Positions 272 through 25,751 of a DNA stretch of 32,000 bases are shown here, in pieces; the stretch's first letter is position 1, and each line of letters begins with the position of its first letter. Position numbers and translations under genes: made by a program. Source of the stretch: Horticoccus luteus (GTDB lineage: Bacteria > Verrucomicrobiota > Verrucomicrobiia > Opitutales > Opitutaceae); the NCBI RefSeq assembly GCF_019464535.1, contig NZ_CP080507.1:3630001-3662000 (forward strand), written 5' to 3'. Under the pieces are notes generated by a model, which was not told the origin of the DNA, did not search any database, and was given only the letters and a program-made list of their open reading frames with translations.

Positions 272-1117
272 TCACTTCTTCACGGGCGCAAATTCGATCG
301 GGATCAGCACGTCGAGTTCGACGAATTGACCGTCTTTGATCGCCGGAGCAAACAGCCAGCCCCGGAGCGCCTCCGCGGCCGCCTGTCCAAATTCCGGAGC
401 ACTCGCCTCCTGCACTTTCGCGTCCGTAACCACGCCTTCCCGGTCGACATGGCACAACACTTTGGCGGAGCCGGCCTCGCCCGAAGCGCGCAGCGATGCA
501 GGATAGATGGGCGCTTCCGCGTAAACCGGGACCAGATCGCGCGCTGGCGTGCGCTTCAACGTGAAGGCATCGCGCGTTTCCTTGGCCTTCTTGATCGCGT
601 CAGGTGTCATGGTCGAATTGATCACCTCGAACGCCCCCGCGAAAAAATGCACGTCCGGGCGGAGCTTCGATTTCTTCGCGTTCTTTCCCGCCACCTGAAT
701 CGCGAATGCGCCCGGCTTCGTCGGACTGAGGTTGTCCGGCAACGCCGCCACGCGGACGTATTTCGTCGTCCCATCCGTCTCCTTCACCTCGACCGCCACG
801 AAGCTGCGGGGAATCGCCCGGTCAGGCACGACCGTCCCCGTGATCAGCAACTGCCCTTCTTCCGCCGCTGCTTGGATCTTGTAGGGCTTCACCGTGAAAA
901 ACGCGTCGTGAAACGTGCTGGCGGGCCTGGTCATGAGCTTCGCCTTCGCGACCGCCGCCCGCGCCTTGCCGCCTTTCACTGCGACAATCGGCGTGTCATC
1001 CTGCTTCACGGCGACCACCGGGTTCGTCGCGAAACCTTCCTTCGCCACGACGATCTCCTGCGCCCGGCCGGCGTGGAGAGTAAGGAGAGAAAAGGAAAGG
1101 AGGAGCAGACGTTTCAT
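272..1117 (-). CDS. secreted protein with a TonB C-terminal (TonB_C) domain
   Basis: ATG at 1117 and TGA at 272. Signal-like N-terminus MKRLLLLSFSLLTLHAGRAQE. The C-terminal ~85 aa (LVPVYAEAPIYPASLRASGEAGSAKVLCHVDREGVVTDAKVQEASAPEFGQAAAEALRGWLFAPAIKDGQ) matches the TonB_C pattern P.YP..a...g..G.v.v...vd..G.v....v..ss....fd.aa..a....f.Pa...G. Confidence 0.7.
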   Translation of the reverse strand: MKRLLLLSFSLLTLHAGRAQEIVVAKEGFATNPVVAVKQDDTPIVAVKGGKARAAVAKAKLMTRPASTFHDAFFTVKPYKIQAAAEEGQLLITGTVVPDRAIPRSFVAVEVKETDGTTKYVRVAALPDNLSPTKPGAFAIQVAGKNAKKSKLRPDVHFFAGAFEVINSTMTPDAIKKAKETRDAFTLKRTPARDLVPVYAEAPIYPASLRASGEAGSAKVLCHVDREGVVTDAKVQEASAPEFGQAAAEALRGWLFAPAIKDGQFVELDVLIPIEFAPVKK

Positions 1118-1137
1118 GGGGAAAGGGTTGAAGGTTA

Positions 1138-2676
1138 TTAACGCGCTTCGGCGGTTACCACATCTTCGTTGTAAACTTTACCGTCGGTTCCGTAATGACG
1201 AAAAACAGCGCGCGGCTGGCCGTCCACGCGTTCGATGGTGACGTGCAGGAAGCCGCCTTTAATGCGCAAAAAGCGATGCATCGGCGTGCGGTCCGCGAGG
1301 CTGTAGCCGCCTGCATGCGCGTCCGACGTAGGGCCGGTCGAATACTCGCGCAGCCCAGTCGCCGGATCCGCCGAGACGTATTGCCAGTGCCGGTCCCCCG
1401 CGATCACGACCATGTTCTTCTGCGCGGCGAGAAACGCCCGTAACTCCGCGCCTTCGTGCGCGAAGGCCGCATTGGCGTGATTGTCGCCCTTCGCTTCGCG
1501 GTCCGGTCCCACGACCGGCGTCGGCGCAATCAGGATGCGAAACGTGGCATCCGACTCCTGCACGGTCCGGAAAAACCACGCTTTCTGTTCCGGCCCCCAA
1601 ATTGTTTTGTCCGGACCATCAGGCGCCGTATTCGGCGACCGAAACTCCCGGCCCTCCATCATCCACACTTGCAGATCCTTGCCCCACCGGGCGGTCCGGT
1701 AGGTCTTTTCGCCCATGGGCACTTCCTCGCGGAAAATTCTCACTCCGTCCGCAAACGTCAGTTCGCCGTAGGTCTGCCCCGGCCACGCGTCGTCCTTCAA
1801 CGTGTCATGGTCATCCTTCATGAAGTAGCTCGGCACGTGGAGATGAAACGCGCGGATATACGGCATCGCATACATGCGGTCCCACTTGAATCGCGCCAAC
1901 GCCGGCGTCGTCGCCAGCGGCGTCGGCTTGTCGTAATACTCACAGTCGCCCGTGTGCACGAAAAAGTTCGGGTGCAACTCCGCCATCAACCGGTAGGTCT
2001 TGTGCCCGTTGAGTGGATCATCGCGCCGCGCGTAATCTTGTCCCGTCACCACGGTGAACGTCACCGGCTCAACCGCCTCTTTCGCGGGCGCCGTGCGAAA
2101 ACTGCCTTCCTGCGCGCAGGTCGGGCCCGCCGCGGATGCCCGCCCTTCGGCCCGAAACCGATACCGGCAGTTTGCGCGCAAGCCATGCAGCGCGAATTGG
2201 TGGGAGAAGTCCCGATCGGCACTGATGGCCGCCCAGGCCAGAGCGGTCTCCGCCTTGTCGCCCTCCGCCCAATAGACGATTCGCACTTCCCCTTCGGCGC
2301 CGGGCACTGCTCCGTCCATCTCCGCGAGCGCGTGGCCCGCGAGTTGCAGGTTTTCAGGAATCGGCGCGCTGATCCGCAACGCCCGCTCTTCATACGTTTC
2401 GTTTTTCGGAGGCGCGTTGTCCTTCTCGATCTCGGCACGCGTACGAAATGCCACGCCGTTCATCACCCGTTCCGCGTTGCGCGTCAGCCGCGTCCAGATG
2501 ATCGCGGAATCCGTGGACACTTCGCCAATTTTCAAACCGTCTGCCATGAACACCGCCGCTGTCGCCGGCTCGCTGGTCGGTGCCTTGACTGGGTCCGCCT
2601 CGCCTTCCGCCGCTGTTCTCGCCGTCAATGCGCACAGCGCACTTGCGGCCAGCGCGATGCGCCAAAAATGACGCAT
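1138..2676 (-). CDS. PhoD-like alkaline phosphatase / metallophosphoesterase
   Basis: ORF 1138..2865. I place the start at the ATG at 2676 (MRHFWRIALAASALCALTARTAAEG, a signal peptide) because the longer form has a non-signal, Arg-rich leader. Metallophosphatase/PhoD blocks are present: FTVVTGQDY, FFVHTGDCEYYD, FMKDDHD, VVIAGDRHWQYVS. Confidence 0.8.
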   Translation of the reverse strand: MRHFWRIALAASALCALTARTAAEGEADPVKAPTSEPATAAVFMADGLKIGEVSTDSAIIWTRLTRNAERVMNGVAFRTRAEIEKDNAPPKNETYEERALRISAPIPENLQLAGHALAEMDGAVPGAEGEVRIVYWAEGDKAETALAWAAISADRDFSHQFALHGLRANCRYRFRAEGRASAAGPTCAQEGSFRTAPAKEAVEPVTFTVVTGQDYARRDDPLNGHKTYRLMAELHPNFFVHTGDCEYYDKPTPLATTPALARFKWDRMYAMPYIRAFHLHVPSYFMKDDHDTLKDDAWPGQTYGELTFADGVRIFREEVPMGEKTYRTARWGKDLQVWMMEGREFRSPNTAPDGPDKTIWGPEQKAWFFRTVQESDATFRILIAPTPVVGPDREAKGDNHANAAFAHEGAELRAFLAAQKNMVVIAGDRHWQYVSADPATGLREYSTGPTSDAHAGGYSLADRTPMHRFLRIKGGFLHVTIERVDGQPRAVFRHYGTDGKVYNEDVVTAEAR

Positions 2677-2756
2677 CCCCCTCACGGGTGAGGTCGGGTT
2701 CCGGATGGCTCGTGACGGTGTTGGATGGCTCTGCATGCGTGTCCTCTCGGGTGAAT

Positions 2757-4775
2757 TTAATCTGTCACGGTCAGCGGCGCCGCGGGCTGCGTTTTCGTCG
2801 TTTCGGGCGCGAACCGCCAGCTCTTGTCCTCCACCCACGCACTGTGATCGAAATTGCCGATCCACTCGCGTTCATGCGCGCGGCGGAAGCGGATCAACGC
2901 CGCCACCGCCTCGCGGCCGCGATCCGGCGTCGACTCTGGATCGGAGAGCGTCAGCAACCGCGCCGCCTGCACGCTGAGCTGCGCCTGCGTCAATCCGTCG
3001 CGCAGGAACTGCACGCGTGCGACCGCCTCCCGGTCGCCTCGCGCCGCCTGCGCCGCCTCGTCCAGCAACGCCTCCGCCGGACCGAAGCACTCGTCGGGAA
3101 AAATCCGGTGCGGCACTTTCGCCCACGTGCGCCAGCGCATGGCTTCGCGATCTTCAAACGCGCTGAAGATCAGCGGACGGTTGTCCATCGTGTAACGCTC
3201 CCAGTAATCGAAATACGCCTGCACCTGCCGGGCCGCCGGACCAAAGCCGCCGTAGTATTCTGCGAGCAGTTCATCGACTGGAGCGTCCGGCTCCGTGTGC
3301 AGACGCATCAACAGGTAGAGGGTCGGCCCTTGCACCGCCCACTGGCCCGTGAGCGAATCGAAGTCCGTGGCAACGCAACCATGGCGCACGGCGTGCTGAA
3401 AATCATCGGCGAACTGATGCGCGAAAATGAAGGGCATGTCGTAGCCGTCGAGAAAGTAGTCGGGGCGGAAAAACAGCCGCGCGCCCGTGCGGCTCCAGCC
3501 GTCCCATTGCGCCTTATACCAGGCATGCTCATCGTCGAATCGCGGATACCACCCCGCCGACGGACTGAAAGCGATCAGGATGTGCGAATTGAGCTGTACG
3601 CCCGACGTCGGCGGCTGGAAATAATTGAAATACGCATAGCCGATCGCGGTGACGTCCGGATTTTCCTTTGCCGCGAGCTGCTGCACCGCCAGCACGAAAC
3701 GCGCATAGCGGTCCGTCACAAAACGCGCCCCGTGCATTTTGAATTTCGGCAGGTAATACTTGTCCTTGTCCGGCGGCGGCGGCCCGTCCCAGGCCCGGCA
3801 GGCGTCGCATTCGCACAGGCCGAGAATATCGTTGTCCACTGCGTTGATGAAGCTCGGCAGGGTCCCCGCCGCCGCTCCGCCGCGCTTCTTCCACTGGGCG
3901 ACAATTTCGCGGTGCAGACCGGGGTTCGAGACGCACATCGAGAAACGCGCCCCCGGCGTCGCCGGTCCGCGTTTGCCATTCACCAATTGAAACCACTCGG
4001 GATGCGTGGCGCCGTATTTTTGCCACCACGTCTTGAACTCATCGTGGCCGTAACTGATCCGATAGCTGCGCCCCAGCCGGTGCCGGCGGAGAAAAACCTG
4101 CTGTTCCTGCGCGTAAGCCTGCGTCGCCGCCGGCGTGAATCCGAGCTCGGGGTGGTCGAGATCCTTCGCGAAGTTGAGTCCCGGCCGCACGTGACGCTGA
4201 AAGAATCGCGGCGCCATGGTCACATCCATCCGACCAAACTCGATCCGCTCGGCGCGCGGCACATACGTGCCAAGTTCGCCCGGCCACAGCCAGCGCACGC
4301 CTTGGGTGCGCTCCAGCCATTCATAAACACCAAACAGCGTGCCGGCCGATGTGCTCAAATCGAGCGGATCACCCGGCGCATCGCGGCCCGCGATGATCAA
4401 ACCCGCCGCCGTGCTGCGCACCGTGAAAGTTTCCACCGCCAGTTTCCGACCTTCGATCGCCGCCGCTCGCGCCGCCGCCGTATCTCCCAGAAAAATCAGC
4501 CTCGCGGCGAGTCCGCGCGCTTGCGCTTCATCCACCACCGGCGGCCGGTGGCCGGTCGCTTTTTCCAGGTGATAGGCGAGCTCCTGCGCTGCGTAACGCA
4601 CCGCTTCCGGACATCCAGCAGCAGTGACGATCGTCACCGCTGCGGCGGGTGCTGCCTCCGGGCGGTCATCCATCCGCGCAAGAGCCATCGCGGCTTCTCC
4701 CGAACCGCCGCGCGCGGCGCCGACGATAGCCAGGAGCGCGAGCGCGGACAGAACCTTCATCAGCGGTGCGCGCAT
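2757..4775 (-). CDS. DUF4838-type putative glycoside hydrolase, paralog P1
   Basis: Long ORF with a signal peptide (MRAPLMKVLSALALLAIVGAARG). Shared family blocks: VRYAAQEL.YHLEKATG, GTLFGVYEWLE...VRWLWPGELGT, HPEWFQLVNGKRGP, MCVSNP, NAVDNDILGLCECDACRAWDGP, FIFAHQFADDF, EWIGNFDHSAWVED. The ATG at 4775 shares one base with the sulfatase TGA (TGATG). GTG at 4778 or 4790 are alternative starts. The family name rests on recognition only. Confidence 0.7.
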   Translation of the reverse strand: MRAPLMKVLSALALLAIVGAARGGSGEAAMALARMDDRPEAAPAAAVTIVTAAGCPEAVRYAAQELAYHLEKATGHRPPVVDEAQARGLAARLIFLGDTAAARAAAIEGRKLAVETFTVRSTAAGLIIAGRDAPGDPLDLSTSAGTLFGVYEWLERTQGVRWLWPGELGTYVPRAERIEFGRMDVTMAPRFFQRHVRPGLNFAKDLDHPELGFTPAATQAYAQEQQVFLRRHRLGRSYRISYGHDEFKTWWQKYGATHPEWFQLVNGKRGPATPGARFSMCVSNPGLHREIVAQWKKRGGAAAGTLPSFINAVDNDILGLCECDACRAWDGPPPPDKDKYYLPKFKMHGARFVTDRYARFVLAVQQLAAKENPDVTAIGYAYFNYFQPPTSGVQLNSHILIAFSPSAGWYPRFDDEHAWYKAQWDGWSRTGARLFFRPDYFLDGYDMPFIFAHQFADDFQHAVRHGCVATDFDSLTGQWAVQGPTLYLLMRLHTEPDAPVDELLAEYYGGFGPAARQVQAYFDYWERYTMDNRPLIFSAFEDREAMRWRTWAKVPHRIFPDECFGPAEALLDEAAQAARGDREAVARVQFLRDGLTQAQLSVQAARLLTLSDPESTPDRGREAVAALIRFRRAHEREWIGNFDHSAWVEDKSWRFAPETTKTQPAAPLTVTD

Positions 4776-6373
4776 CACGGATTTTCCCACGGATCCCTGG
4801 TCCGCCGCTGAAAGGCCGTGAGTTCAGCCATGAGCTGCTGCTTCACGGCCGCGTGACCGGGATCGTCGGTGAGGTTGTTCACCTCGTCCGGATCCTGCTC
4901 CAGATCGTAAAGCTCGTATTCGGGCCGATGCAGAAACGCGGCGACCGTGCGTTGGCCAAACATCCGCCGCTCGCTCTCGGCGCTCGGCAGCCACGTGGGC
5001 GTTTTCTCCTCCGTGTCCGGCCCACGCACCTGTTTCGGCGCCAGCACCGCGCTGATCCACGTCGACGACTCGACCAGATCCCGCGCGAGCGGAAACGTGA
5101 GCTCATGCGCGAGGTTGTGAATCAATTTGTAGCGCGGCGTCCGGATGACGCGCATCGGGTAATACATCGTGATTTGATGAAACGTGTGCGAAGCAAAGAC
5201 CCGGTCCCATCCCGCCAATGCGCCACCATCCAAGCCCGCGCGAAACGATCGGCCGTCGAACTGCTTCTCGTCGTAGGCCACGCCCGCGACGTCCAGCACC
5301 GTCGGCGTCAGGTCCGCCCACGAGACCATCGCCGACTGCAGCGCTCCCGGGTGTTGTCGGCCCGGTGCCCGCACCAGCAACGGCAGGCGCATCCCGGGTT
5401 CGTAGAGCGTCGTCTTCGAGCCAGGAAACGCCGGCCCGTTGTCCGAAAGGTACAGAATCAACGTGTTCTCGTACTTCCCCGCGGCCTTCAGCACGCCGAT
5501 CAGTTTGCCGACGCCCTGGTCCAGGCGCGCAATCGACTGGTAATACTGGGCCAGTTCAAGGCGCGTGGCTTCGTTGTCGGGCAAATACGACGGCACGACC
5601 ACGTCCTCCGGACGAAACGCGACGGGCGTCACGCCCGGATAACCCTGCGGCCGATTGCCGAAGCTGTTGGGATTCGGATACGTCTTGAAAGTCGGCTTCC
5701 CGTCCGGACGAAACGCGTTCGAGCGATGCGGATCGTCGGTCGCGTAATAGAGAAAGAACGGCCGGTCGTCCTTCGCCTCGATCACGCCGCGCGACATTTC
5801 CGCCATCTCCACCGGGCTGCGCCCGATCGTCTTCGGATCGTTCGCGTGCCCTTCCGAGAGCACGGTTTGAAACGCGAACACCTTCTCTGGCGCGATGTGA
5901 TACTTCCCGATGCGCGCCGTGCGGTAACCGGCTTCCGCCAGGATCACCGACAAACTGCGGACACTGTCGAAGCTCTGAAAGTGATGCTCGTCGTGCTGCA
6001 AGCCATACATGCCGTTATGGTGACTCTGCAGCCCGCTGAGAATCGTCGCGCGCGACGGACTGCAACTGGCCGTCGTGCAAAACGCCGCGGTGAAGCGCGT
6101 GCCGTCCGCCGCGAGTGCGTCGAGATTCGGCGTGCGCACCACCGGATTGCCGTAGCATCCCAGCCCATCGGTGCCGTGATCGTCCGCCACGATCATCACG
6201 ATGTTCGGGCGAGCGGGCGCCGCGGCCGTCGCCGCGGGTTCCGCCGCCGCACCGCAGCCTGCCAGCAGCGCCGCTCCGAGCACCGCCCCCCGCCACCCTA
6301 GGGCGACGGCCGGTCTATTTTGCGGTCGCGGCAATATACGCGCTGAGTTGTTCGACATGATGGTTGAAGACAT
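4775..6373 (-). CDS. formylglycine-dependent sulfatase, N-sulfoglucosamine sulfohydrolase (SGSH/sulfamidase)-like, probable lipoprotein
   Basis: NIVMIVADDHG...CSPSRATILSG (C-x-P-x-R at 6050..6064), followed by LQSHHNGMYGLQHDEHHFQSFDSVRSL and DDRPFFLYYATDDPHR. These closely resemble the SGSH-type blocks I recall. Lipobox LLAG|C at 6254..6256. The start is uncertain: TTG 6382, ATG 6373, ATG 6358 or TTG 6334, and all of them overlap the upstream gene's 3-prime end. Confidence 0.88.
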   Translation of the reverse strand: MSSTIMSNNSARILPRPQNRPAVALGWRGAVLGAALLAGCGAAAEPAATAAAPARPNIVMIVADDHGTDGLGCYGNPVVRTPNLDALAADGTRFTAAFCTTASCSPSRATILSGLQSHHNGMYGLQHDEHHFQSFDSVRSLSVILAEAGYRTARIGKYHIAPEKVFAFQTVLSEGHANDPKTIGRSPVEMAEMSRGVIEAKDDRPFFLYYATDDPHRSNAFRPDGKPTFKTYPNPNSFGNRPQGYPGVTPVAFRPEDVVVPSYLPDNEATRLELAQYYQSIARLDQGVGKLIGVLKAAGKYENTLILYLSDNGPAFPGSKTTLYEPGMRLPLLVRAPGRQHPGALQSAMVSWADLTPTVLDVAGVAYDEKQFDGRSFRAGLDGGALAGWDRVFASHTFHQITMYYPMRVIRTPRYKLIHNLAHELTFPLARDLVESSTWISAVLAPKQVRGPDTEEKTPTWLPSAESERRMFGQRTVAAFLHRPEYELYDLEQDPDEVNNLTDDPGHAAVKQQLMAELTAFQRRTRDPWENP

Positions 6374-17970: not shown

Positions 17971-20063
17971 TTTGTCGATTGGTTCACCGCGATCCAAAAC
18001 GGCTGCTCGTTGCCGGTGCGCACCTCGCGCACGGACTCTTCCTCGCGCAGCCGTTCGGCGCGCATCCGCGCCGGCTCGGTGCCGAGCAGGCGCTCAAACC
18101 CGGCGTTGTCGGCATACGCGTTTTCAAGATAGAACAGGAGTTCCCAGTGCATATTGAGATCGAGACGATGCTGCCGGCGGAAATCATATAAGGCCTGGGT
18201 CGTCTGCTTTTTCTCCTCCGCTGAAGCCGTCGAGCCCACGCCATTCGCCTTCGTGGCGCGATAAGTGACCCGGCTGTGCTCGTTGGCCAGCACCAGCGTC
18301 TGCACCCGCGCGCGTTCACTGGCGGTCAGGTCCCGGCTGAGTGCTTTCTGCAGCAGCGCATCCGTCTGGTCGAAATCCTCTTCCCGATACATCAAGCCCG
18401 CGAGGTTCGCCATTTTGTTGCGCAATAGCTTCATGCCCGGCGTGAGGTCGGTGATGCGGTCGAGGTTGGGCATCACCCGATCGTTCCAGATCTGCTGCCA
18501 ATATTGCTGGTAGGCTTTTACGTCGTCGCGAGCGTTACCGTAAGTCCCGCAATATTCGTTTTCCCAATCCGCGAAAGAGCGCTCGGGCCGGTAAAAACCA
18601 CGCGCCATGATATAATTGGTCATGCCTGAAATCGGCCAGAAGCCCCAGCACGTATCATAATCCGTGCCCTTCATGTTGAGGTAGTGGTTGACAAGCTGAT
18701 AGTGGCCAAACATGTGCTGCTCAAAACCGAGCGGCAGACCCGTGTCCTGACACAGCGCATTGGTCCGCATATAAACATCCGTGGCATTGGCATTCTTCCA
18801 CCCGCGGACGTAGGCCTCCATCTCCGGCAGGGTTTCGGACAGATTCGGCAGCAGGAACGTAATCACGCCATCGTCCAGGCGCTCCCGCCGGGGCGGCTGA
18901 TTGTAGCGGCTGTAGGCATAGAACACCACGCGGGCCTTAGGATCGTAATGCGCGCGGGCTTCGCGGAGCACCGCGTTGGTGAAATGCACGTAGCGGTCGG
19001 TCAACATCCGGTCCTCGACGTCGAGATTTTCCTCGCCCGGCAGCAGCACATCGAGCGCCTGGCAGTCCGGACAACGGCAGAAATTGCGACTGTCGTTTTC
19101 GCAGGCATTGATGACCAGCCCGCCGCCCGCCGCGTAATGATCCTTCACGACCTGTTTGACCAACGCCGGATTGCTCACGCACATCTTCACCCGATCGGCC
19201 AGTTTCTCTGACGCCGGCCCGCGCTTGCCGTTTTTGCCGAGCGCAAAATATTCCGGGTGCGTCGCGCCATACTTGGCCCACCACTTCCGAAAGGCGTGGC
19301 CGTAGGTGAAATCGAGGCTGCTGCCCATGCGCATCCGCTTTTGCCAGACACGCTCATCCAACTGACGCGCCTCAAATTCCTTCGCGGAAAACTGCATGTC
19401 CTTCGGCACTTCGCCTTCCTTTAACGCGCGATCGCGGAGGTCTTCTTTATACGCGGTGCGCATGTGGCGTTGCACCAGTTGCGGCACCCACTGCCCCTCG
19501 CTCACCGGGAGCACCAGCACCTTTTGCGGCGTGTAGGTAATGCCGGCGAGACCCGGTTCGATCCAGTGCACCCCGAGGGCGTTCTCCAGAAATTCATAAA
19601 CGGCATACAGCGTGCCCGCCTGGGTCTTGCTCGCCATGGCGATGTCGCGCGCCGTGCCGCCGCCGCGAAGGGCCTTCTTGTTCACGGCATCCCGCCCATA
19701 CAAGAAAATGCCTTTCGGTGTGACGACCCAGCGCCCTTCCTCGACCTCGAGCGATGTCTTCACGTTGGGCGGGAGGAGCCCCACGCCGATCGGAAACTGT
19801 CCCGCTTGGGGGCGCTTCACCACGGGCACGTCGCAACCCGTGATCAACTTCAAGTGGAACTGCAGTTCCTCCACCGCGTAGTCGATCACCGCCGTTTTTT
19901 TGGCCGGCACCACGATGACGCAGCTCGACGGGTTGATCTTGATCGTGGGGTCTTCACTTTTCGCCCGCAGCGCGGTGGTTCCAAGCGAGATGGCTGCCAG
20001 CAAGCAGCACAGGAGTTTATTTAGAGAATTCACAGATATTGTATTGGGGTTGCCCGGTCGCAC
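17967..20063 (-). CDS. DUF4838-type putative glycoside hydrolase, divergent paralog P4
   Basis: GTG start at 20063, or GTG at 20033 giving (M)NSLNKLLCCLLAAISLGTTALRA. It keeps the family skeleton (GTLYAVYEFLENALGVHWIEPG, HPEYFALGKNGKRGP, MCVSNP, NACENDSRNFCRCPDCQALD) but differs at most other positions. The C-terminal EWIGNFNH..W.ED block is absent. GC content is visibly lower than in its neighbours. Confidence 0.65.
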   Translation of the reverse strand: MRPGNPNTISVNSLNKLLCCLLAAISLGTTALRAKSEDPTIKINPSSCVIVVPAKKTAVIDYAVEELQFHLKLITGCDVPVVKRPQAGQFPIGVGLLPPNVKTSLEVEEGRWVVTPKGIFLYGRDAVNKKALRGGGTARDIAMASKTQAGTLYAVYEFLENALGVHWIEPGLAGITYTPQKVLVLPVSEGQWVPQLVQRHMRTAYKEDLRDRALKEGEVPKDMQFSAKEFEARQLDERVWQKRMRMGSSLDFTYGHAFRKWWAKYGATHPEYFALGKNGKRGPASEKLADRVKMCVSNPALVKQVVKDHYAAGGGLVINACENDSRNFCRCPDCQALDVLLPGEENLDVEDRMLTDRYVHFTNAVLREARAHYDPKARVVFYAYSRYNQPPRRERLDDGVITFLLPNLSETLPEMEAYVRGWKNANATDVYMRTNALCQDTGLPLGFEQHMFGHYQLVNHYLNMKGTDYDTCWGFWPISGMTNYIMARGFYRPERSFADWENEYCGTYGNARDDVKAYQQYWQQIWNDRVMPNLDRITDLTPGMKLLRNKMANLAGLMYREEDFDQTDALLQKALSRDLTASERARVQTLVLANEHSRVTYRATKANGVGSTASAEEKKQTTQALYDFRRQHRLDLNMHWELLFYLENAYADNAGFERLLGTEPARMRAERLREEESVREVRTGNEQPFWIAVNQSTK

Positions 20064-20067
20064 AATG

Positions 20068-20085: not shown

Positions 20086-20096
20086 GATTACGTCGG

Positions 20097-22151
20097 TCAG
20101 GGATATAATTCCGGCGCTTGTTTCGTTTCGGTCCCAAGCGTCCAGCTCAAGTCCTCGACCCATGCCTCGTGGTTGAAATTTGCGATGCCGCTGAATTCAT
20201 GCGCGCGACGGAATGCCAGCAGTTCCGCCAACGCCTCCTTGCCTTCCGGCGCGGGTCCATCCGGCCGGGCCAACGACAGCAAGCCGGCCACCCGCGAACT
20301 GAGCTTCGCGTGCACTAAACCAGCCTGCAAAAACGCCACGCGTTCCGCCGCCGTGCGGTCGTCGGCGCAGGCCGCCGCCGCTTTCGCGAGCATCGCTTCG
20401 CCCGCGGCAAAGCACTCCGTCGGATAAACCGCGTGCGCCGCTTTCGCCCAAGTGCGCCACCGCGAGGCGTGCAGGCTATCGAACGCCTCGTTGATCTGCG
20501 CGCGATGCCCCATCGTATAATTTTCCCAATAGTCGAAATACGCCTTCACCTCGGTCGCCGCTGGACCGAACGCCGCGTAATATTCGCTCAAGAGTTCGTC
20601 GGGATCCGCATCCGGCCGCGTATGCAGACGCATCAAGAGGTAGAGGTCCGGCCCTTGCGTCGCCCACTGGCCTGTCAACGAGTCGAAATCTGTCGCCACC
20701 ATGCCGTTTCTCACCTCCGACTGGAAGTCGTCGGCGAACTGGTGGGCGAAGATGAACGGCATGCAGTAGCCGTCCAAAAAGTAGTTCGTGCGCGAGAAGA
20801 GCCGCGCGCCTGTGTCCGCCCAACCGCGCCATTGCCGCTTGAACCAAGCGTGCTCCTCCGGGCTGCGGGGATACCACCCGCCAGAGGGACAGTAACCGAG
20901 CAGGATGTGATCGTTTAACTTTATTCCCGAAGTCGGGGCCTGAAAGTAGTTGAAATACACATAGCCGACCACGGTCGCATCCGGATCGTGCTTCGCCGCG
21001 AGCTGCTGCACCGCCAGCCAGAAATGGGCGTAGCGGTCGGAAACGAAACGCGCCCCAAACACCTTCGATTTGGGCGAGTAGAATTTCATCGCATCAGCGG
21101 GCACCGGCCCGTCCCACGCCCGGCACCCTTCGCATTCGCACAGACCGAGAATGTCGTTCTCGACCGCATTGATATAATGCGGATTCGTCCCCGTGGGCTT
21201 CGTGCGCTCCGCCTGCCATAGGTCCACAATTTTCTGCTGCAACCCCGGCTCCGACACGCTCATCGAAAAGCGCCCGCCGGGTTTCATCGGCCCGCGCTTT
21301 CCATTCACCAATTGGAACCATTCGGGATGGTCCTCGCCGTATTTCTCCCACCAGTCGGTGAACGCGTGATGATAAGTGATCACCGTCCCGCGCCCCATGC
21401 GGCACCGGCGGAGAAAGACCGATTGCTCATGCGCATACTTTTCCGCTGCCGCCGGCGTAAAGCCGAGCGCCGGATGGTCGCTGGTGAATCCCAGGCCCGG
21501 ACGCACGAGGCGCTGAAAAAAGCGCGGGGCGACAGTTTCGTCCCAGTCGTGCGCCACAACTTCGTGCCGGACCGGCACGAACGTGCCGAGCTCTCCCGGC
21601 CACAGCCAACGCACGCCGAGTTCGCGTTCCAGCCATTCATACACGCCAAACATGGTCCCTCCGGGCGTGTTCATATTGAGCGGATCGCCGGGCGGAATTT
21701 CCGGCGGATTGTAAAGCGCATCGGACACCGCATGCTCTCCGGCGCGCGTGCCCGGCCCGCCCCGACGAAGATCGCCTCCTACGATGTAGACATCGGGACC
21801 GATCGTTCGAAGCACGAATGTTTCCGGCGCCAGGGCTGCGGCATCGATCCCCGCGTTTTCAGCGGCGCGCGTCGCTCCGAGGAAAAAATGGGATCCGTCG
21901 CCGGGCTGGCCGTCGGCTTCGGTCATGATCGGCAGCGTCACACCCGAGGCTTTCGCAATATGCTCCACCAACTCTTGGGCGGCATAGCGCACGACCGGCG
22001 AAGCATCGCCCGGCACCACCACCGTCGCGCGCGCCTGACCCGCCGCGACAATCGGCCGCTCAGACCCGCAGGCGATCTGGACGGCGAAGAGCGCGCCGGC
22101 CAGCACCAAGGCCCAGCCGCGGCGCGGATGGAGTTCGAAAGAACCTTTCAT
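20097..22151 (-). CDS. DUF4838-type putative glycoside hydrolase, paralog P5
   Basis: The ATG at 22151 lies 6 nt after the receptor stop. Signal peptide MKGSFELHPRRGWALVLAGALFAVQIA. Family blocks: GTMFGVYEWLERELGVRWLWPGELGT, HPEWFQLVNGKRGP, NAVENDILGLCECEGCRAWDGP, FIFAHQFADDF, ANFNHEAWVED. It has MSVSEP where the others have MCVSNP. Confidence 0.7.
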   Translation of the reverse strand: MKGSFELHPRRGWALVLAGALFAVQIACGSERPIVAAGQARATVVVPGDASPVVRYAAQELVEHIAKASGVTLPIMTEADGQPGDGSHFFLGATRAAENAGIDAAALAPETFVLRTIGPDVYIVGGDLRRGGPGTRAGEHAVSDALYNPPEIPPGDPLNMNTPGGTMFGVYEWLERELGVRWLWPGELGTFVPVRHEVVAHDWDETVAPRFFQRLVRPGLGFTSDHPALGFTPAAAEKYAHEQSVFLRRCRMGRGTVITYHHAFTDWWEKYGEDHPEWFQLVNGKRGPMKPGGRFSMSVSEPGLQQKIVDLWQAERTKPTGTNPHYINAVENDILGLCECEGCRAWDGPVPADAMKFYSPKSKVFGARFVSDRYAHFWLAVQQLAAKHDPDATVVGYVYFNYFQAPTSGIKLNDHILLGYCPSGGWYPRSPEEHAWFKRQWRGWADTGARLFSRTNYFLDGYCMPFIFAHQFADDFQSEVRNGMVATDFDSLTGQWATQGPDLYLLMRLHTRPDADPDELLSEYYAAFGPAATEVKAYFDYWENYTMGHRAQINEAFDSLHASRWRTWAKAAHAVYPTECFAAGEAMLAKAAAACADDRTAAERVAFLQAGLVHAKLSSRVAGLLSLARPDGPAPEGKEALAELLAFRRAHEFSGIANFNHEAWVEDLSWTLGTETKQAPELYP

Positions 22152-22157
22152 CCCCGG

Positions 22158-25100
22158 TCACAAGTCGAAGCTGGCAGTGAGGAGAAACATGCGCGGGTCG
22201 ACGACGCGGTAGGCGGAAATCGTCCCGTCCGGCCACGCGGCGAGCGGCTGCAAGCGGCCGTCTTCCTGCACGTTCTTCACGTTGAGCTGGAAGCGGGCGT
22301 TGATCCGCCGACCCGCGAACAATTTCATCTGGTAACCCAAGGTGAGATCAAACGCGAGATGCGACTCATCGTAGATCGGCCGCGACTTGTCCAATTGGGT
22401 GTAAACGCCGGTGGAATCCTTGATGCCCCAGTAACCGATGGCGCCCTTATCCTGCCACCGCACCGCGCCACCGATGCTGACGGCTTTCCACACCGGATTG
22501 TCAGTGATCCCTTCCAACCGGTAGTTGGTGAGGAAGCGGGCACTATAGCGGCGGATTTGCGGCATGCTCAGACCTTCCTGCGCGATGGCGATCGCCAGCG
22601 GCTGGGAGACGTTTTTCCCGTCGTAATAGATTTTCGCCGAGCCGACGTTCGGGCCGTCGTATTGATATGTATACCAATTGGTCGGCGCGCCGGTCGGGTT
22701 ATCGATCGTCGCGGGCGGAGCCGGATCGACGACGCTCTCCCAGACAGGCATGCGCTCGTTGATATAGTTCAGGAGGCCTGACGCGATTTTGGCCTGAATC
22801 GACTCCTGTTGCGTCACATTGCCCTTCATCGTCCAGAAACGCGTGGGATTATAATTGAATTCAATCTCCGTGCCGCGGGCCAGCGTATCCTCGGGTTCCG
22901 CGAGGTTGAGGCCCTCCTCGTCCAGCCGGGACATCTGGTCGATAAAGTCCGGACTGAGGTGCATCACACTGGCGACCTGCTGGCGCAACTGGTCGACGGT
23001 GATGCTCGGATTCTGCGCCACGATCCATTGGCTTGCCCGGTTCTGCAGCGCAAACGCGCGCGAGGCCGTGCCATCGTAGATGTCGATCGCGAGCAGGCGA
23101 TTCGCAATCGTGGAGGACGTCCCGCGGCGATTTCCGATCGTGCGATTCTCGTATTTGTTCACGCGGATATTGAACTTCGAGTCGAAGAGATTCACCCAGA
23201 CGCCATAGTCTTTGCCGAGGCCGGTGGGATTGGGCACGCGGTTGCCGTGCAGGTCGATCGCCGGCACGTCCGGCAGGAAGCTGTCGGATTTGTTGCCGTA
23301 AAAGCTGATGCCGTTGAACCACGTCAACGAGCTTAGCCACGCGCCCGCCTTCGTGCCGCTCAGCCACGGGAGCGGCCGCACCACCACGCCCTTGGTCGTC
23401 GTCGAACCTTGGTTCGTCACCCAATCGGAATTCCATTGTTCGTCCCACGCATAGTCATGAGACAAACCATCCGTCTTCATCTTCGGCAAAACGCCGGAAC
23501 GGTCGTAAATATTATCCCGCCGGAAGCCGAACGTGGGCACGATGCTGTCGCGGATGAGATGGCTTTGCAGCACCACACCCGAGGTCTTCTGAATCTTCAG
23601 GTCGTTGTTGGCGCCACCAGTGCCGTCGAGCGATCCGGCGAAACCGAGTTGCGTCGGCTCGTGATAGAAGTTCCCCGTCTTCGCATCGCCGTAGGTGAAG
23701 TCATAAACGCCGGGCGAAAACGACCGGGGCGCGTAGTCGATATTGTAGTCCTGATTGTCGCCCACGTAATACATGTAGTAATTGCGCGAACCGACGGGGG
23801 AGTTTTTGTTATAGAGCTCCGATCCGTAGTTCGTGGTAACGCCGCTGCTGGTGGCACGATTGACGCCGTAGGGCAGCCAGACGTGGTCGTCCAGCATGGC
23901 GGGTTTGTAAACGTAGCGGCGTGTTTCGTAATGCTTGTATTCCTGAAACGCCGAGAGCTGGTGCATGCCGAGCCAGTGCCACCAACCTTTTTCGCGCCGC
24001 AGATCGAGTTTGTAGGCGAGCTGCGCCCGATAGGTGTTGTTGGTGAGCGGAGTCTCGCGCAGGCTCGCGTCCGGAATCGAGATGAAGGGGCGGCCGAGGT
24101 TCGGATTTTCGCTCCCGTCCATCCGCCGGCGATTCACGTCGATCAAATAGTAACCATAGGGTTTTCCGTAGGGCGTGTCCTGGGTCAGCTTGGACGTCTC
24201 GCGAAACCATCCCGCTTGCAACGCCACCAGATTCATCGGCGTATCCAGAATCGTTTGCGTCAGCTGAATCAAAGACTGGCCGGTGCGGTTCCACTCTTTG
24301 TTGATCGAGGCCAGATTGACGTTGCGCCAGTCGTAGTCAGTCAGCGGCGGAGCGCCCTTGATGAGACCGGCATTGCCCGCGCCAAAGCTGGGCACCACAT
24401 AGTTGTAAGCCGCCTGACTCGTCTTCGCATTATTATCCCACGTCGCCGGATTGTTGTCGAAGGGGCCAAGCGGGATCGGAATGCCCAGCGGGCTCATCGG
24501 CTTGCCATTCGTCGGCGTCGCGGTCCCCCGCGGCGTGGTCCAATAGTCAACGCCGCCGCCGTCGAGGAAGAGCAGGGAGTTTCCGCGGCCGGTATTTTGA
24601 TACAGTGTCGTGAAATAGGAAGGCAGCTTGCCGGCGGCATTGGTATAGCGCACGGAGCCGTCCGCATTGTAGGCGGTATTGGTCACCGGGTCCCACGTCG
24701 GCATGCCCGCCGCCTTCCAGTCCTGCGTGCCATCGCGCGGGGTCAGCGTGTTCGCCCTGATGCCGGAATAGCGATAGTCCAAATAGGACGCGGTCACCAC
24801 CGTCCCCTTGAAGGGCTGGTATTTCACCATGAAGTTGTAACGCTCGGTGTTCGTCCCCGAGGGCTTCAGGTGATAGCCCGTGTGCATGAACACCTGGCTC
24901 ACCCGCACCGCCAGTTTGTTCTTCAGGATGACTTTGTTGGTGTCGAACGACTCACGGTAGCCGCCGAAGCTGTCCGCCCGAAACTCGATTTTTGTTTTGT
25001 CTTTGTTCAGGTTGCCGGTCGCCGCGACCACGTTCACCGTGCCGGCCGGACTGCCGAGACCGAAGATGCTGGAGTTGGGCCCGCGGGAGATCTCCACGCC

Positions 25101-25751
25101 CTCAATGCCCACTTTGTCGATCGGCACGCGGCCGGCCGTCTCAAAATTGCCGAGCGCGATGTTCGCGCTGCCGATGCCGCGGATGCGATTGGCCGAGCCC
25201 GGCGAGGTGCTGGAGTTGTCGTTGATATTGCCGCTCGTCTCGACCGTGAAATCGGTATACTCGTTCAACCCCTCCGTGCCCGCCTCGTAGCTGAAGATAT
25301 CGTTGATATCCAGCATGGCAAAATCATCCATCTGATCGAGCGTCACCACGGTGACGGAAGACGCGAGATCCTCCACTTTGCTGTTGAGGCGCGTGCCCGA
25401 CATGGCGTTGGAGCCATAATACCCGTCCTTCTCCTCCTTCACCGTAAACGGGTCCATCTGCTGCACCGGTTCGCGCGTGGCATGCCCGGCCGCTTCCGGG
25501 TTCGTCAGCACCGCCTGACGCACGGCACGATCATCGTCGGCCTTTTTGGCCGCCAACTCATCCGCGTCGAGCCGGCCATTCTTGTTGGTGTCGTATTTGG
25601 CGAGGTCTGCCGCGCTGGGGGGAGTCGCGGTCGACGGGGCGCCCTGCGCGACGGCGGCGATTGCCAGGAGCGCCGGGATGAGGATGAACCGACCTGTCGG
25701 CCAACGGAACAAACGGACAGGAGAAACTGAAACGGCGGGGGATGGAGTCAT
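22158..25751 (-). CDS. TonB-dependent outer-membrane receptor (long, ~1197 aa) with an N-terminal EF-hand-like extension
   Basis: I place the start at the ATG at 25751 (MTPSPAVSVSPVRLFRWPTGRFILIPALLAIAAVAQG, a signal peptide). The 37-aa upstream extension to the GTG at 25862 is Pro/Arg-rich and crosses a G9 tract. Plug-like block: MDPFTVKEEKDGYYGSNAMSGTRLNSKVEDLASSVTVVTLDQMDDFAMLDINDIF...GVEISRGPNSSIFGLGSPAGTVNVV. A long beta-barrel-style Y/G/N/T-rich sequence follows. Confidence 0.82.
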   Translation of the reverse strand: MTPSPAVSVSPVRLFRWPTGRFILIPALLAIAAVAQGAPSTATPPSAADLAKYDTNKNGRLDADELAAKKADDDRAVRQAVLTNPEAAGHATREPVQQMDPFTVKEEKDGYYGSNAMSGTRLNSKVEDLASSVTVVTLDQMDDFAMLDINDIFSYEAGTEGLNEYTDFTVETSGNINDNSSTSPGSANRIRGIGSANIALGNFETAGRVPIDKVGIEGVEISRGPNSSIFGLGSPAGTVNVVAATGNLNKDKTKIEFRADSFGGYRESFDTNKVILKNKLAVRVSQVFMHTGYHLKPSGTNTERYNFMVKYQPFKGTVVTASYLDYRYSGIRANTLTPRDGTQDWKAAGMPTWDPVTNTAYNADGSVRYTNAAGKLPSYFTTLYQNTGRGNSLLFLDGGGVDYWTTPRGTATPTNGKPMSPLGIPIPLGPFDNNPATWDNNAKTSQAAYNYVVPSFGAGNAGLIKGAPPLTDYDWRNVNLASINKEWNRTGQSLIQLTQTILDTPMNLVALQAGWFRETSKLTQDTPYGKPYGYYLIDVNRRRMDGSENPNLGRPFISIPDASLRETPLTNNTYRAQLAYKLDLRREKGWWHWLGMHQLSAFQEYKHYETRRYVYKPAMLDDHVWLPYGVNRATSSGVTTNYGSELYNKNSPVGSRNYYMYYVGDNQDYNIDYAPRSFSPGVYDFTYGDAKTGNFYHEPTQLGFAGSLDGTGGANNDLKIQKTSGVVLQSHLIRDSIVPTFGFRRDNIYDRSGVLPKMKTDGLSHDYAWDEQWNSDWVTNQGSTTTKGVVVRPLPWLSGTKAGAWLSSLTWFNGISFYGNKSDSFLPDVPAIDLHGNRVPNPTGLGKDYGVWVNLFDSKFNIRVNKYENRTIGNRRGTSSTIANRLLAIDIYDGTASRAFALQNRASQWIVAQNPSITVDQLRQQVASVMHLSPDFIDQMSRLDEEGLNLAEPEDTLARGTEIEFNYNPTRFWTMKGNVTQQESIQAKIASGLLNYINERMPVWESVVDPAPPATIDNPTGAPTNWYTYQYDGPNVGSAKIYYDGKNVSQPLAIAIAQEGLSMPQIRRYSARFLTNYRLEGITDNPVWKAVSIGGAVRWQDKGAIGYWGIKDSTGVYTQLDKSRPIYDESHLAFDLTLGYQMKLFAGRRINARFQLNVKNVQEDGRLQPLAAWPDGTISAYRVVDPRMFLLTASFDL

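Follow-up and report, generated by a model that had tools for sequence, protein, structure and literature searches.

Comparison with described glycan-degradation systems

In the Sus-like polysaccharide-utilization loci (PULs) of Bacteroidota, a gene for an outer-membrane TonB-dependent transporter heads a co-directional block of hydrolase, lyase and sulfatase genes that is directed at one complex glycan. TonB-receptor loci with carbohydrate-active enzymes (CAZymes) also occur outside Bacteroidota, including the CUT loci of Xanthomonas and clusters of CAZyme and sulfatase genes in marine Verrucomicrobiota such as Lentimonas; these combine a receptor with CAZymes and one-component regulators, and have no SusD. 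SusD is known from Bacteroidota only (PMC8319329). The heparin/heparan sulfate pathway of Pedobacter heparinus, a soil bacterium, comprises lyases, GH88, and S1_9, S1_11 and S1_8 sulfatases, of which the S1_8 enzyme is a heparin N-sulfamidase (PMC10154612). At the family level, DUF4838 (PF16126) contains the CAZy families GH163 (BT1035, an endo-beta-GlcNAcase) and GH185 (Sp_0475, a 6-sulfo-beta-GlcNAcase); both characterized members act on beta-GlcNAc, and GH185 needs the 6-sulfate (PMC10570127).

The 32-kb stretch of DNA analyzed here (the window) is from Horticoccus luteus, a soil and plant-root bacterium of the Opitutaceae (Verrucomicrobiota), and all close homologues of the locus proteins were found in Opitutaceae or other Verrucomicrobiota; g7 was 100% identical to an H. 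luteus protein. As in Sus-like PULs, CAZyme genes were clustered co-directionally with a transporter gene at their head. However, the locus contained no SusD gene and its receptor was not of the SusC type, leaving it without a susC/susD pair, and no HTCS, SusR or ECF/anti-sigma regulator was adjacent in the window, whereas related loci have AraC or DeoR regulators. The locus shared the combination of a receptor and CAZymes without SusD, and in its relatives the one-component regulators, with the TonB-receptor loci outside Bacteroidota, but the window lacked their usual inner-membrane transporter and regulator, and DUF4838 paralogues dominated its enzyme set. To our knowledge, such dominance is not a feature of the TonB-receptor CAZyme loci described. 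A soil habitat is shared with P. heparinus, as are an S1_8 sulfatase of the SGSH type, a lyase and, in sister loci, a hydrolase for unsaturated uronyl residues. In contrast, neither a lyase of the heparinase type nor a partner from S1_9 or S1_11 was seen, and the hydrolase of the sister loci was GH105-like rather than GH88-like. The region is probably a Verrucomicrobiota-type polysaccharide-utilization operon, with the two-module fusion and the mechanism proposed below.

Organization of the locus

The initial annotation had described a 25.5-kb, single-strand glycan locus that is led by a TonB receptor and has almost no intergenic space. This description was borne out: 13 minus-strand ORFs tile positions 272-25751 (Table 1), 99.4% of which is coding when the most plausible starts are used. 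The right end was supported by a better start for g13, whose ATGAC context is kept in the closest related locus (L001). In transcription order, the junctions measured +6, +33, -4, +56, -4, +2, -4, +8, -44, -1, +20 and +20 nt, and three of them were 4-nt start/stop overlaps (ATGA/GTGA). The receptor gene g13 came first and the TonB_C-domain gene g1 last, with 11 enzyme genes downstream of g13 on the same strand and gaps of at most 56 nt. We infer that the 13 genes are co-transcribed as an operon. Internal promoters could lie in the two widest gaps, of +33 nt (g12/g11) and +56 nt (g10/g9). Terminator-like sites were not enriched (22 versus 20.6 expected), and no Rfam elements were found in the 32-kb window. 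Several long ORFs in other frames or on the opposing strand (23409-25730 on the plus strand, and 26092-27387 and 29515-31815 on the minus strand) were rejected as genes and regarded as high-GC artefacts.

Table 1. Features of the Horticoccus luteus locus and of its surroundings in the window.
Feature	Coordinates	Strand	Assignment	Length	Match or content
g1	272..1117	-	TonB_C-domain protein	281 aa	Pfam TonB_C 58 bits; TIGR01352 48 bits
g2	1138..2736	-	PhoD-like metallophosphoesterase	about 532 aa	Pfam PhoD 81.7 bits
g3	2757..4775	-	DUF4838, second c-clade copy	about 672 aa	PF16126; 65% identical to g7
g4	4775..6358	-	Formylglycine-type S1 sulfatase, SGSH-like (S1_8-type)		Pfam Sulfatase 182.6 bits and SGSH_C
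g5	6315..7895	-	Distant PL10-like (alpha/alpha)-toroid lyase	526 aa	Pfam Pec_lyase
g6	7904..9886	-	DUF4838, b-type	660 aa	PF16126; GTGA overlap with g7
g7	9883..11895	-	DUF4838, c-type	670 aa	PF16126
g8	11898..14330	-	GH31	810 aa	Pfam GH31 146.7 bits, C-terminal domain 85.7 bits
g9	14327..16585	-	GH36-like, alpha-galactosidase-type	about 752 aa	Pfam Melibiase 45.4 bits, cut-off 27
g10	16642..17970	-	PelZ-like pectate lyase, PL1-type beta-helix	442 aa	NCBIfam NF041900
g11	17967..20063	-	Divergent DUF4838, d-type	698 aa	PF16126
g12	20097..22151	-	DUF4838, e-type	684 aa	PF16126; NJ-tree group with L019, L011
g13	22158..25751	-	TonB-dependent receptor	1197 aa from ATG at 25751	Pfam Plug 28.4 bits
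Divergent intergenic region	25752..26110		Between g13 and a DUF455 gene	about 360-410 bp	
g15	27583..29268	-	GH28, BT4146-type rhamnogalacturonidase		NF049898 646 bits, above 500 cut-off
Module A	g13-g9				Receptor, DUF4838e, DUF4838d, PelZ-like lyase, GH36-like enzyme
Module B	g8-g2				GH31, DUF4838c, DUF4838b, PL10-like lyase, sulfatase, DUF4838a, PhoD

The receptor g13 had an N-terminal extension with an EF-hand-like loop (weak Pfam EF-hand matches). Among NCBIfam models, it matched siderophore receptors weakly and gave no match to the SusC model TIGR04056; its relatives were Opitutaceae receptors with 36-47% identity. Direct reading of g1 revealed an N-terminus that resembles a cleavable signal peptide, and no Pro-rich spacer. 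The divergent intergenic region upstream of g13 is presumed to be the promoter and operator region of the operon; no convincing sigma-70 consensus, strong inverted repeat or Rfam match was found in it.

HMM searches gave no match to SusD, sigma/anti-sigma, two-component or HTH families among the 16 genes of the 32 kb. The absence of SusD, which had been pointed out initially, was confirmed with Pfam for these genes, but it is expected because the host belongs to Verrucomicrobiota and SusD is known from Bacteroidota only. Similarly, the lack of a regulator held for the window, although it poses no special puzzle of control, as the core genes follow AraC or DeoR regulators in relatives. An AraC-family regulator was directly upstream in Nibricoccus (L008) and Oleiharenicola (L009), and in L010 (Opitutus ER46) and L006 (a JGI contig) the gene immediately ahead of the receptor encodes a DeoR-family regulator. 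Since related loci carry these regulators beside the same genes, control of the H. luteus locus is most likely exerted by a one-component regulator of the AraC or DeoR type that would be encoded outside the window. The 32-kb window likewise encoded no inner-membrane sugar transporter and no GH105/GH88 enzyme, so that the system is incomplete as seen.

Lyases, glycoside hydrolases and esterases

The family assignments of the initial annotation were reproduced with Pfam and NCBIfam models for the GH36-like and GH31 enzymes and for the GH28 enzyme nearby, and, with scores below the curated equivalog cut-offs, for the putative PL1 (PelZ-like) and PL10-like lyases. The lyase g10 matched NF041900 over its full length with 375 bits, a score below the equivalog cut-off of 840, and the PDB pectate lyase 9buj with an E-value of 1.6e-23; it had no Pfam match, PF00544 included. 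The second lyase, g5, matched Pfam Pec_lyase with 59.6 bits, over model positions 1-193 of 292 only, and TIGR02474 with 75 bits, below the cut-off of 189.8. The best PDB folds for its AF2 model (pLDDT 77) were the PL10 enzymes Azospirillum PelA (1R76) and Cellvibrio Pel10A (1GXM), at 16-18% identity. The stretches FPNGG(F/W)PQ and QQ...PTxARxFEP were common to g5 and PL10, the latter being seen with 1R76; g5 differed from PL10 in an extra C-terminal beta-rich domain of ~150 aa, and two thirds of the Pfam model were matched.

The GH36-like protein g9 aligned with Thermotoga GalA (1zy9; E 6e-30) in the catalytic domain only (residues 303-563), its N-terminal 300 aa lying outside the alignment, and its orthologues (57-58% identity) adjoin the receptor in L002 and L005. 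The GH31 protein g8 was closest to the alpha-xylosidase YicI (E 1e-62), and L008, L009 and L010 all retain it as part of their core module. The GH28 gene g15 lies outside the 13-gene array in its own transcription unit, and a 64% identical copy is located beside a DUF4838 gene and a sulfatase gene in L006.

The SGSH-like sulfatase and PhoD-like phosphatase assignments also stood, based on Pfam and, for the sulfatase, PDB 4mhx. The sulfatase g4 contained the C-x-P-x-R formylglycine motif (CSPSR) and a lipobox (LLAGC), and it aligned with human SGSH (4mhx) end to end with 316 bits, compared with at most 141 bits for other subfamilies. Orthologues of the PhoD-like protein g2 showed 60-62% identity in L008 and L009, and in Oleiharenicola (L009) the sulfatase and PhoD are fused into one 985-aa protein.

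DUF4838 proteins

The initial annotation had assigned five of the 13 genes to one uncharacterized family. Five paralogues were indeed present, but their family is not wholly uncharacterized, as it is DUF4838, which includes GH163 and GH185. Scores against PF16126 were 82.7 (g3), 78.9 (g6), 100.6 (g7), 71.0 (g11) and 65.5 bits (g12), against a gathering cut-off of 26.6. Four copies were 54-65% identical to one another and ~30% identical to the fifth, g11, whose orthologue in Ereboglobus (L005; 56% identical) adjoins a PelZ-like gene. In an NJ tree, the five copies were distributed among four old orthogroups, all of which are also represented in other genera.

The AF2 model of g7 (pLDDT 81.5, pTM 0.84) consisted of an N-terminal alpha/beta domain, a (beta/alpha)8 barrel and a helical domain. 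Foldseek matched it to GH115 (E 4e-13), GH20 Bt4394 (E 2e-9), GH67 (E 3e-9) and GH84 (E 5e-8). The fold neighborhood of Sp_0475 is the same, with GH115 at the top, followed by GH20 and GH84; no PDB entry for GH163 or GH185 was found by phmmer and profile searches. Besides membership of PF16126, a candidate counterpart of the essential Asp after beta-strand 4 and an association with sulfated glycans are shared with GH185/GH163. In contrast, the Horticoccus proteins carry signal peptides and are predicted to be secreted, whereas Sp_0475 is cytoplasmic; they also belong to another phylum, occur in multiple copies beside lyases, and include a b-type copy without the Asp.

Asp319 was invariant in all 143 diverse DUF4838 representatives, among which His248 was conserved in 139, Tyr385 in 142 and Arg634 in 139. 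Position 199 was H, Q or F across the family, with no conserved counterpart of Gln174 in GH185. The catalytic set of GH185 (Gln174, His227, Asp309 and Tyr436, with Arg633 for sulfate) has spacings similar to those of H248, D319, Y385 and R634, a comparison of sequence positions only. Four of the five copies in the window keep the invariant Asp. In g6 it is replaced by Gly (NAVENG versus NAVEND), a change common to the b-type orthologues in L008, L009 and L010. The five proteins may be TIM-barrel glycosidases of the GH20 clan that differ in specificity, and g6 would be either a non-catalytic partner or mechanistically different.

Conservation in related loci

The comparison of synteny proposed initially showed that module B is kept in Nibricoccus (L008), Oleiharenicola (L009), Opitutus ER46 (L010), L014, L015 and L043. 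The conserved core consisted of GH31, two DUF4838 genes, the PL10-like lyase, the SGSH-like sulfatase and PhoD, and DUF4838 and the SGSH-like sulfatase were strictly co-conserved in six loci. Pieces of module A were found in Ereboglobus (L005) and in L002, and in L001 a PL1-domain (PF00544) protein and a DUF4838 protein are encoded behind the orthologous receptor. Judged by gene order, the array is a putative fusion of two modules that are found apart in relatives.

Substrate and alternative interpretations

An acidic, sulfated and decorated glycan, as initially suggested, is a reasonable substrate class, and the candidates are sulfated uronic-acid glycans of two kinds, one rhamnogalacturonan/ulvan-like and the other hexosamine-bearing. 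Galacturonan, the backbone named initially, belongs to one of two comparably supported readings and is not the sole one, since in the conserved core DUF4838 is accompanied by a sulfatase aligning with SGSH, which points to sulfated hexosamine equally well. A pectin-family polymer of rhamnose and uronic acid from plants or algae (homogalacturonan, rhamnogalacturonan-I or an ulvan-like sulfated rhamno-glycuronan), on which the DUF4838 proteins would be side-chain or backbone glycosidases, is a tentative possibility. It is consistent with the PelZ-like PL1 and PL10-like lyases, with the PF00544 protein behind the receptor in L001, and with the BT4146-type GH28 gene, which is located 1.7 kb upstream, scores above the equivalog cut-off and has a counterpart next to DUF4838 in L006. 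The "GH88" Pfam match of sister loci is really YteR/GH105-like, with PDB matches that include the ulvan 3S-rhamnoglycuronyl hydrolase 4ce7. The flanks of related loci contain SDR, Amidohydro_2 and FAA-hydrolase genes, which are typical of the non-phosphorylative rhamnose/fucose pathway, and relatives of Horticoccus come from duckweed and plant roots. However, land-plant pectins have no sulfate, and g4 is far nearer to N-sulfoglucosamine sulfohydrolase (316 bits) than to algal-glycan S1_8 structures (at most 137 bits). Furthermore, the characterized DUF4838 enzymes act on beta-GlcNAc, which is absent from pectin, and GH105, GH78, GH106 and GH2 genes were absent from the window. In the second reading, the target of module B would be a glycan of sulfated hexosamine and uronic acid, either glycosaminoglycan-like or a microbial/algal exopolymer; g4 would serve as a sulfamidase or hexosamine sulfatase, and the DUF4838 proteins as (sulfo-)beta-hexosaminidases with substrate-assisted catalysis. 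This substrate is also a tentative possibility, slightly less probable than the first. Both characterized DUF4838 enzymes cleave beta-GlcNAc, GH185 requiring the 6-sulfate, g4 aligns with human SGSH over its whole length, and the S1_8 N-sulfamidase of P. heparinus offers a precedent (PMC10154612). The strict co-conservation of DUF4838 and sulfatase, the GH185-like spacing of H248, D319, Y385 and R634 relative to H227, D309, Y436 and R633 (suggestive at most), and an aminotransferase-III gene present in the regions flanking L005, L006 and L010 point the same way. On the other hand, neither the window nor the relatives showed a GH88 proper, a heparinase/chondroitinase-type lyase (PL8/12/13/15/21), NagA/NagB or a hexosamine kinase. 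The DUF4838 fold is equally close to GH115/GH67 alpha-glucuronidases and to GH20. Ulvan-active enzymes also belong to S1_8. Carrageenan-active enzymes are members as well (PMC12549532).

Two further alternatives concern the proteins and the array itself. It is rather unlikely that some or all DUF4838 copies are glycan-binding proteins instead of enzymes, with g6 in particular as a pseudo-glycosidase presenting substrate to the receptor or to the neighboring c-type protein. In g6, as in its orthologues from three further genera, Gly stands at a position that is Asp in 143 of 143 representatives while the remaining conserved residues are kept; the b-type gene is always beside a c-type copy, to which it is translationally coupled in the window by the GTGA overlap, and an SusD-type binder is absent from the phylum. 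However, the change affects just one of five copies, g6 keeps E317, which could serve as acid/base instead, and it lacks a clear lipoprotein signal by which it could be displayed at the surface. Some glycosidases, such as myrosinase, dispense with the acid catalyst where their substrate carries a good leaving group or an acidic group of its own. That modules A (g13-g9) and B (g8-g1) merely abut, with separate regulation and different substrates, is unlikely. Module B does occur behind its own AraC regulator or DeoR regulator plus receptor in L008, L009, L010 and L006, and L005 and L002 have pieces of module A but not module B. Yet in the window, module B lacks the separate receptor that it has in relatives, no terminator-like signal stands out, and the g9 stop and g8 start form a 4-nt ATGA overlap, so that any promoter at this point would have to lie within coding sequence. 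This overlap argues for co-translation, with which separate regulation is compatible. A combined proposal, in which module B degrades a non-animal environmental glycan of N-/O-sulfated hexosamine and uronic acid, the Opitutaceae DUF4838 orthogroups are new (sulfo-)glycosidase families, and the b-type protein is a pseudo-glycosidase that binds glycan in partnership with the receptor or the adjacent c-type protein and so takes the place of SusD, is improbable.

For the favored reading of a single polysaccharide-utilization operon, the following mechanism is proposed. The 11 signal-peptide-bearing enzymes would work on the glycan extracellularly and in the periplasm. The beta-elimination lyases g10 (PelZ-like PL1) and g5 (distant PL10-like) would cut the uronic-acid backbone. 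The GH31 enzyme g8 and the GH36-like enzyme g9 would take off alpha-linked side sugars, and the SGSH-like S1 sulfatase g4 and the PhoD-like g2 would strip anionic esters. The non-SusC TonB-dependent receptor g13 would import oligosaccharides, the TonB_C-domain protein g1 being encoded at the opposite end of the array.

Implications

In soil, fresh water and the rhizosphere, Verrucomicrobiota are abundant and break down complex glycans, yet substrates are known for few of their loci. The kind of locus described here and the DUF4838 family are already known, and the locus poses no new regulatory puzzle; the new detail is the Gly in place of the invariant Asp in the g6 orthogroup. The conserved, portable module of GH31, two DUF4838 proteins, PL10-like lyase, SGSH-like sulfatase and PhoD-like protein can guide enzyme discovery in a family with just two characterized members among about 14,700 representative clusters. 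The loss of the invariant Asp in the g6 orthogroup is a clean natural experiment on the mechanism of DUF4838, and it also bears on how bacteria that lack SusD capture glycans.

Organization of the Array

H. luteus contained 13 successive minus-strand ORFs that tile positions 272-25751 in a window with a G+C content of ~63%, and with the chosen starts, 99.4% of this interval was coding. In the order of transcription (g13 to g1), the junctions measured +6, +33, -4, +56, -4, +2, -4, +8, -44, -1, +20, and +20 nt, with ATGA or GTGA overlaps at three of them, including g9/g8. Starts were chosen from signal peptides, from the annotated lengths of database entries with identical sequence (P0001, 670 aa; P0121, 526 aa), and from the receptor start context that is kept in the nearest related locus. 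Scans for terminator-like and promoter-like sites performed no better than on shuffled sequence, and Rfam gave no match across the window, even when the upstream region was scanned with permissive settings. The tiling, the junctions, and these scans therefore confirm the sequence description in the initial annotation, and the array is predicted to be co-transcribed. When started from the nearer in-frame ATG (6358), g4 shares its first 44 nt with the 3' end of g5 (6315-6358), or 59 nt from the farther ATG (6373); the only downstream options were a TTG, which still leaves a 20 nt overlap, and a GTG that would remove the n-region of the signal peptide. Three long ORFs (431-773 aa) that run antisense to real genes or through them in another frame were rejected as high-GC artefacts with Gly/Arg/Ala-rich translations.

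Features of the Horticoccus window and of related loci
Feature	Locus	Coordinates	Strand	Assignment
g13	Window		-	TonB-dependent receptor; Plug domain, no SusC-type match (NCBIfam)
EF-hand-like loop of g13	Window	25550-25600	-	Residues ~50-70 from ATG 25751
g12	Window		-	DUF4838 protein (e)
g11	Window		-	DUF4838 protein (d)
g10	Window		-	PelZ-like pectate lyase; NCBIfam 375 bits full length, against an equivalog cut-off of 840; PDB pectate lyase, E 1.6e-23
g9	Window		-	GH36-like; Pfam Melibiase match; Thermotoga GalA, E 6e-30 (catalytic domain)
g8	Window		-	GH31; nearest alpha-xylosidase YicI, E 1e-62
g7	Window		-	DUF4838 protein (c)
g6	Window	7904-9886	-	DUF4838 protein (b)
g5	Window		-	Distant PL10-like protein
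g4	Window		-	Formylglycine-type sulfatase; CSPSR motif and lipobox
g3	Window		-	DUF4838 protein (a)
g2	Window		-	PhoD-like
g1	Window	272-1117	-	TonB_C-domain protein
DUF455 gene	Window	26008-27483	+	Ferritin-like; divergent from receptor gene
GH28 gene	Window	27583-29268	-	BT4146-type rhamnogalacturonidase; NCBIfam 646 bits, above the 500 equivalog cut-off
Large secreted protein	Window	29581-32000	+	Runs off window; two Ig/I-set domains between threonine- and glycine-rich regions
Rejected ORF	Window	23409-25730	+
Rejected ORF	Window	26092-27387	-
Rejected ORF	Window	29515-31815	-
b-type DUF4838	Nibricoccus (L008)	~11790-14012
b-type DUF4838	Oleiharenicola (L009)	15544-17523
b-type DUF4838	Opitutus ER46 (L010)	12068-14053
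Sulfatase-PhoD protein	Oleiharenicola lentus (L009)	17520-20477		985 aa
DUF455 gene	L001	8131-9477		55% identity
Flank genes	Ereboglobus (L005)	658-5635
Flank genes	L006	1-4685
Flank genes	Opitutus ER46 (L010)	1-5409
Flank genes	L001	13442-14260

Receptor, Enzymes, and Flanking Genes

The N-terminal extension of g13 harbored an EF-hand-like loop (KYDTNKNGRLDADE) and no STN signalling domain; this loop was kept in the two closest receptor orthologues (L001 and L010) but not in more distant ones. The N-terminus of g1 is signal-peptide-like and a proline-rich spacer is absent, so that g1 does not look like a canonical TonB. The related loci yielded no orthologue of g1, and the 272-aa protein that closes the Nibricoccus module proved unrelated to it. 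The sulfatase g4 aligned with human N-sulfoglucosamine sulfohydrolase (SGSH) from end to end at 316 bits, whereas every other solved sulfatase scored at most 141 bits. The best matches of the g5 AlphaFold model (pLDDT 77) were PL10 lyases at 16-18% identity, followed by other (alpha/alpha)-toroid enzymes, and g5 and Azospirillum PelA have a QQ...PTxARxFEP stretch in common. A sulfoquinovosidase assignment for g8 was ruled out by a YihQ score far under that of YicI. A PDB sequence search with g2 found no relative.

Three further genes lie upstream of the array, namely the divergent DUF455 gene, the GH28 gene, and the start of a gene for an Ig-domain surface protein. The divergent pairing of DUF455 and receptor genes recurs in the closest related locus, L001. 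Behind its receptor gene, this locus also encoded a protein that joins Ig and PL1 domains, and PATR autotransporter-repeat proteins were present near two others (L005 and L002). Self-BLAST of the Ig-domain surface protein of the window did not bear out a suspected internal repeat.

The DUF4838 Proteins

All five copies of the paralogous family matched Pfam PF16126 (DUF4838) well over threshold. The initial annotation had treated them as one uncharacterised family, but DUF4838 has two characterised members, the endo-beta-N-acetylglucosaminidase BT1035 (GH163) and the 6-sulfo-beta-GlcNAcase Sp_0475 (GH185) (PMC10570127). Sp_0475 uses a substrate-assisted mechanism with Asp309 as the key acid and contributions of His227, Tyr436, and Gln174, and its Arg633 binds sulfate (PMC10570127). 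The AlphaFold model of g7 (pLDDT 81.5, pTM 0.84) best matched GH115 alpha-glucuronidases (E 4e-13), followed by GH20 (among them the sulfoglycosidase Bt4394), GH67, and GH84, which is the same structural neighbourhood as reported for Sp_0475 (PMC10570127). At the sequence level, neither g7 by itself nor a 14-sequence profile retrieved a relative from the PDB. With the paralogue profile, 14,737 representative clusters passed E <= 1e-3 and 2,440 passed E <= 1e-30; DUF4838 is a large family of which almost no member has been tested. Identity was 54-65% among copies a, b, c, and e, and ~30% to d. The copies are not recent duplicates; a tree including copies from other genera resolved four orthogroups: a c-type (g7 and g3), a b-type (g6), an e-type (g12), and a d-type (g11).

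In an alignment of 143 diverse DUF4838 representatives (g7 numbering), the Asp of the NAVEND motif (residue 319, in the loop after barrel beta-strand 4), D333, and N442 were invariant (143/143), followed by Y385 (142/143), R440 (140/143), H248 and R634 (139/143 each), and a CxCxxC motif (132-136/143). Position and spacing suggest that D319 of g7 equates to the catalytic D309 of Sp_0475. The b-type orthogroup, comprising g6 and its orthologues in Nibricoccus, Oleiharenicola, and Opitutus ER46, carried Gly at this position (NAVENG) and kept the other conserved residues. In each of these genomes, b-type and c-type copies are neighbours, and in the window g6 and g7 overlap by GTGA. Provided that D319 and D309 are equivalent, g6 would be a pseudo-glycosidase or would work by an altered mechanism. 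The CxCxxC motif (residues 324-329 in g7, with equivalents in all paralogues) lies immediately C-terminal to this Asp loop and could form a metal site or a disulphide cluster close to the active site.

Synteny and Modular Origin

The comparison of related genomes that the initial annotation had proposed revealed a co-occurring set. GH31, DUF4838c, DUF4838b, the PL10-like lyase, the SGSH-like sulfatase, and PhoD formed a core block that recurs at 57-69% identity in several loci, with most or all of it in Nibricoccus aquaticus, Oleiharenicola lentus, and Opitutus sp. ER46, and parts in metagenome contigs (L014, L015, and L043). DUF4838 homologues further off (below ~58% identity) occurred in unrelated contexts. 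In Oleiharenicola, the sulfatase and PhoD domains, which are encoded by the separate genes g4 and g2 in the window, form one protein; this fusion links the two functionally and suggests that they may act on the same substrate.

Ahead of the core block stood one of two pairs, an AraC-family regulator with a Pfam 'Glyco_hydro_88' protein or a DeoR-family regulator with a receptor; the AraC regulators belong to L008 and L009, and the DeoR regulators to L006 and L010. The 'Glyco_hydro_88' protein was ruled out as a glycosaminoglycan-type GH88, since among solved structures it is closest to YteR/GH105; the ulvan 3S-rhamnoglycuronyl hydrolase 4ce7 is also among its matches. In two loci (Ereboglobus L005 and L002), the genes of the upstream part (receptor, DUF4838d, PelZ-like lyase, and GH36-like enzyme) were found without the core block, and L001 contained the nearest receptor orthologue, followed by the Ig/PL1 protein and a DUF4838 protein. 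Because the two modules are found apart in relatives, the Horticoccus array is their head-to-tail fusion, in which the core module no longer has a receptor or regulator of its own.

Genes for an aminotransferase-III, a DeoC-type aldolase, an FGGY kinase, Amidohydro_2, SDR, and FAA-hydrolase proteins recurred in the flanks of related loci; an M81 peptidase gene and an SSF transporter gene each occurred in one flank. These flank genes hint at a catabolic route for the released sugars.

SusD and Regulation

No match to SusD, sigma/anti-sigma, two-component, or HTH families was found among the 16 window genes. The lack of SusD noted earlier is thus real; however, it is expected and not special to this locus, because the host belongs to Verrucomicrobiota and SusD-like proteins are known from Bacteroidota only (PMC8319329). 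The close relatives of the receptor and the enzymes all came from Opitutaceae or other Verrucomicrobiota, and g7 was 100% identical to a Horticoccus luteus protein. Similarly, the 32-kb window contained no regulator, as had been stated, but this hardly makes its control a puzzle, since AraC or DeoR regulators directly adjoin the same genes in relatives. The simplest expectation is therefore that a one-component regulator would be encoded elsewhere in the H. luteus genome. The divergent region upstream of g13 (360-410 bp) contained no recognisable operator, a repeat scan of it gave nothing useful, and its alignment with L001 was conserved around the start codon only.

Predicted Function and Substrate

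The locus most likely works as a SusD-less, receptor-led degradation system. The lyases g10 and g5, secreted or periplasmic, would cleave a uronic-acid backbone, GH31 and the GH36-like enzyme would trim alpha-linked side sugars, and the sulfatase and the PhoD-like esterase would remove anionic esters. The DUF4838 enzymes would act as glycosidases, and the products would be imported by g13, possibly with g1. We infer these cellular locations and this order of action.

A sulfated, uronic-acid-containing substrate is well supported, and within this class two readings are about equally supported. The PL1-like lyase, the PL10-like lyase, the GH28 rhamnogalacturonidase, and the GH105 in sister loci point to a rhamnogalacturonan- or ulvan-like polysaccharide, as do the flanks of related loci, where the SDR, Amidohydro_2, and FAA-hydrolase genes resemble those of the rhamnose/fucose catabolic pathway. 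The ecology of Horticoccus relatives (plant root and duckweed) is consistent with such a substrate. On the other hand, the known chemistry of DUF4838, the SGSH-like sulfatase g4, and the finding that DUF4838 and this sulfatase are strictly conserved together argue for a sulfated hexosamine, for which the S1_8 enzyme of Pedobacter heparinus, a heparin N-sulfamidase, is a precedent (PMC10154612).

The initial interpretation is thus supported in part: the reading as a glycan locus with a receptor, lyases, a sulfatase, and a PhoD-like enzyme stands, whereas the oddities first ascribed to SusD, the regulator, and an uncharacterised family do not. The locus is a predicted verrucomicrobial receptor-linked CAZyme operon, and its value lies in a conserved module centred on DUF4838, a glycosidase family that has hardly been tested, and, as a second point, in a conserved Asp-to-Gly paralogue of that family.
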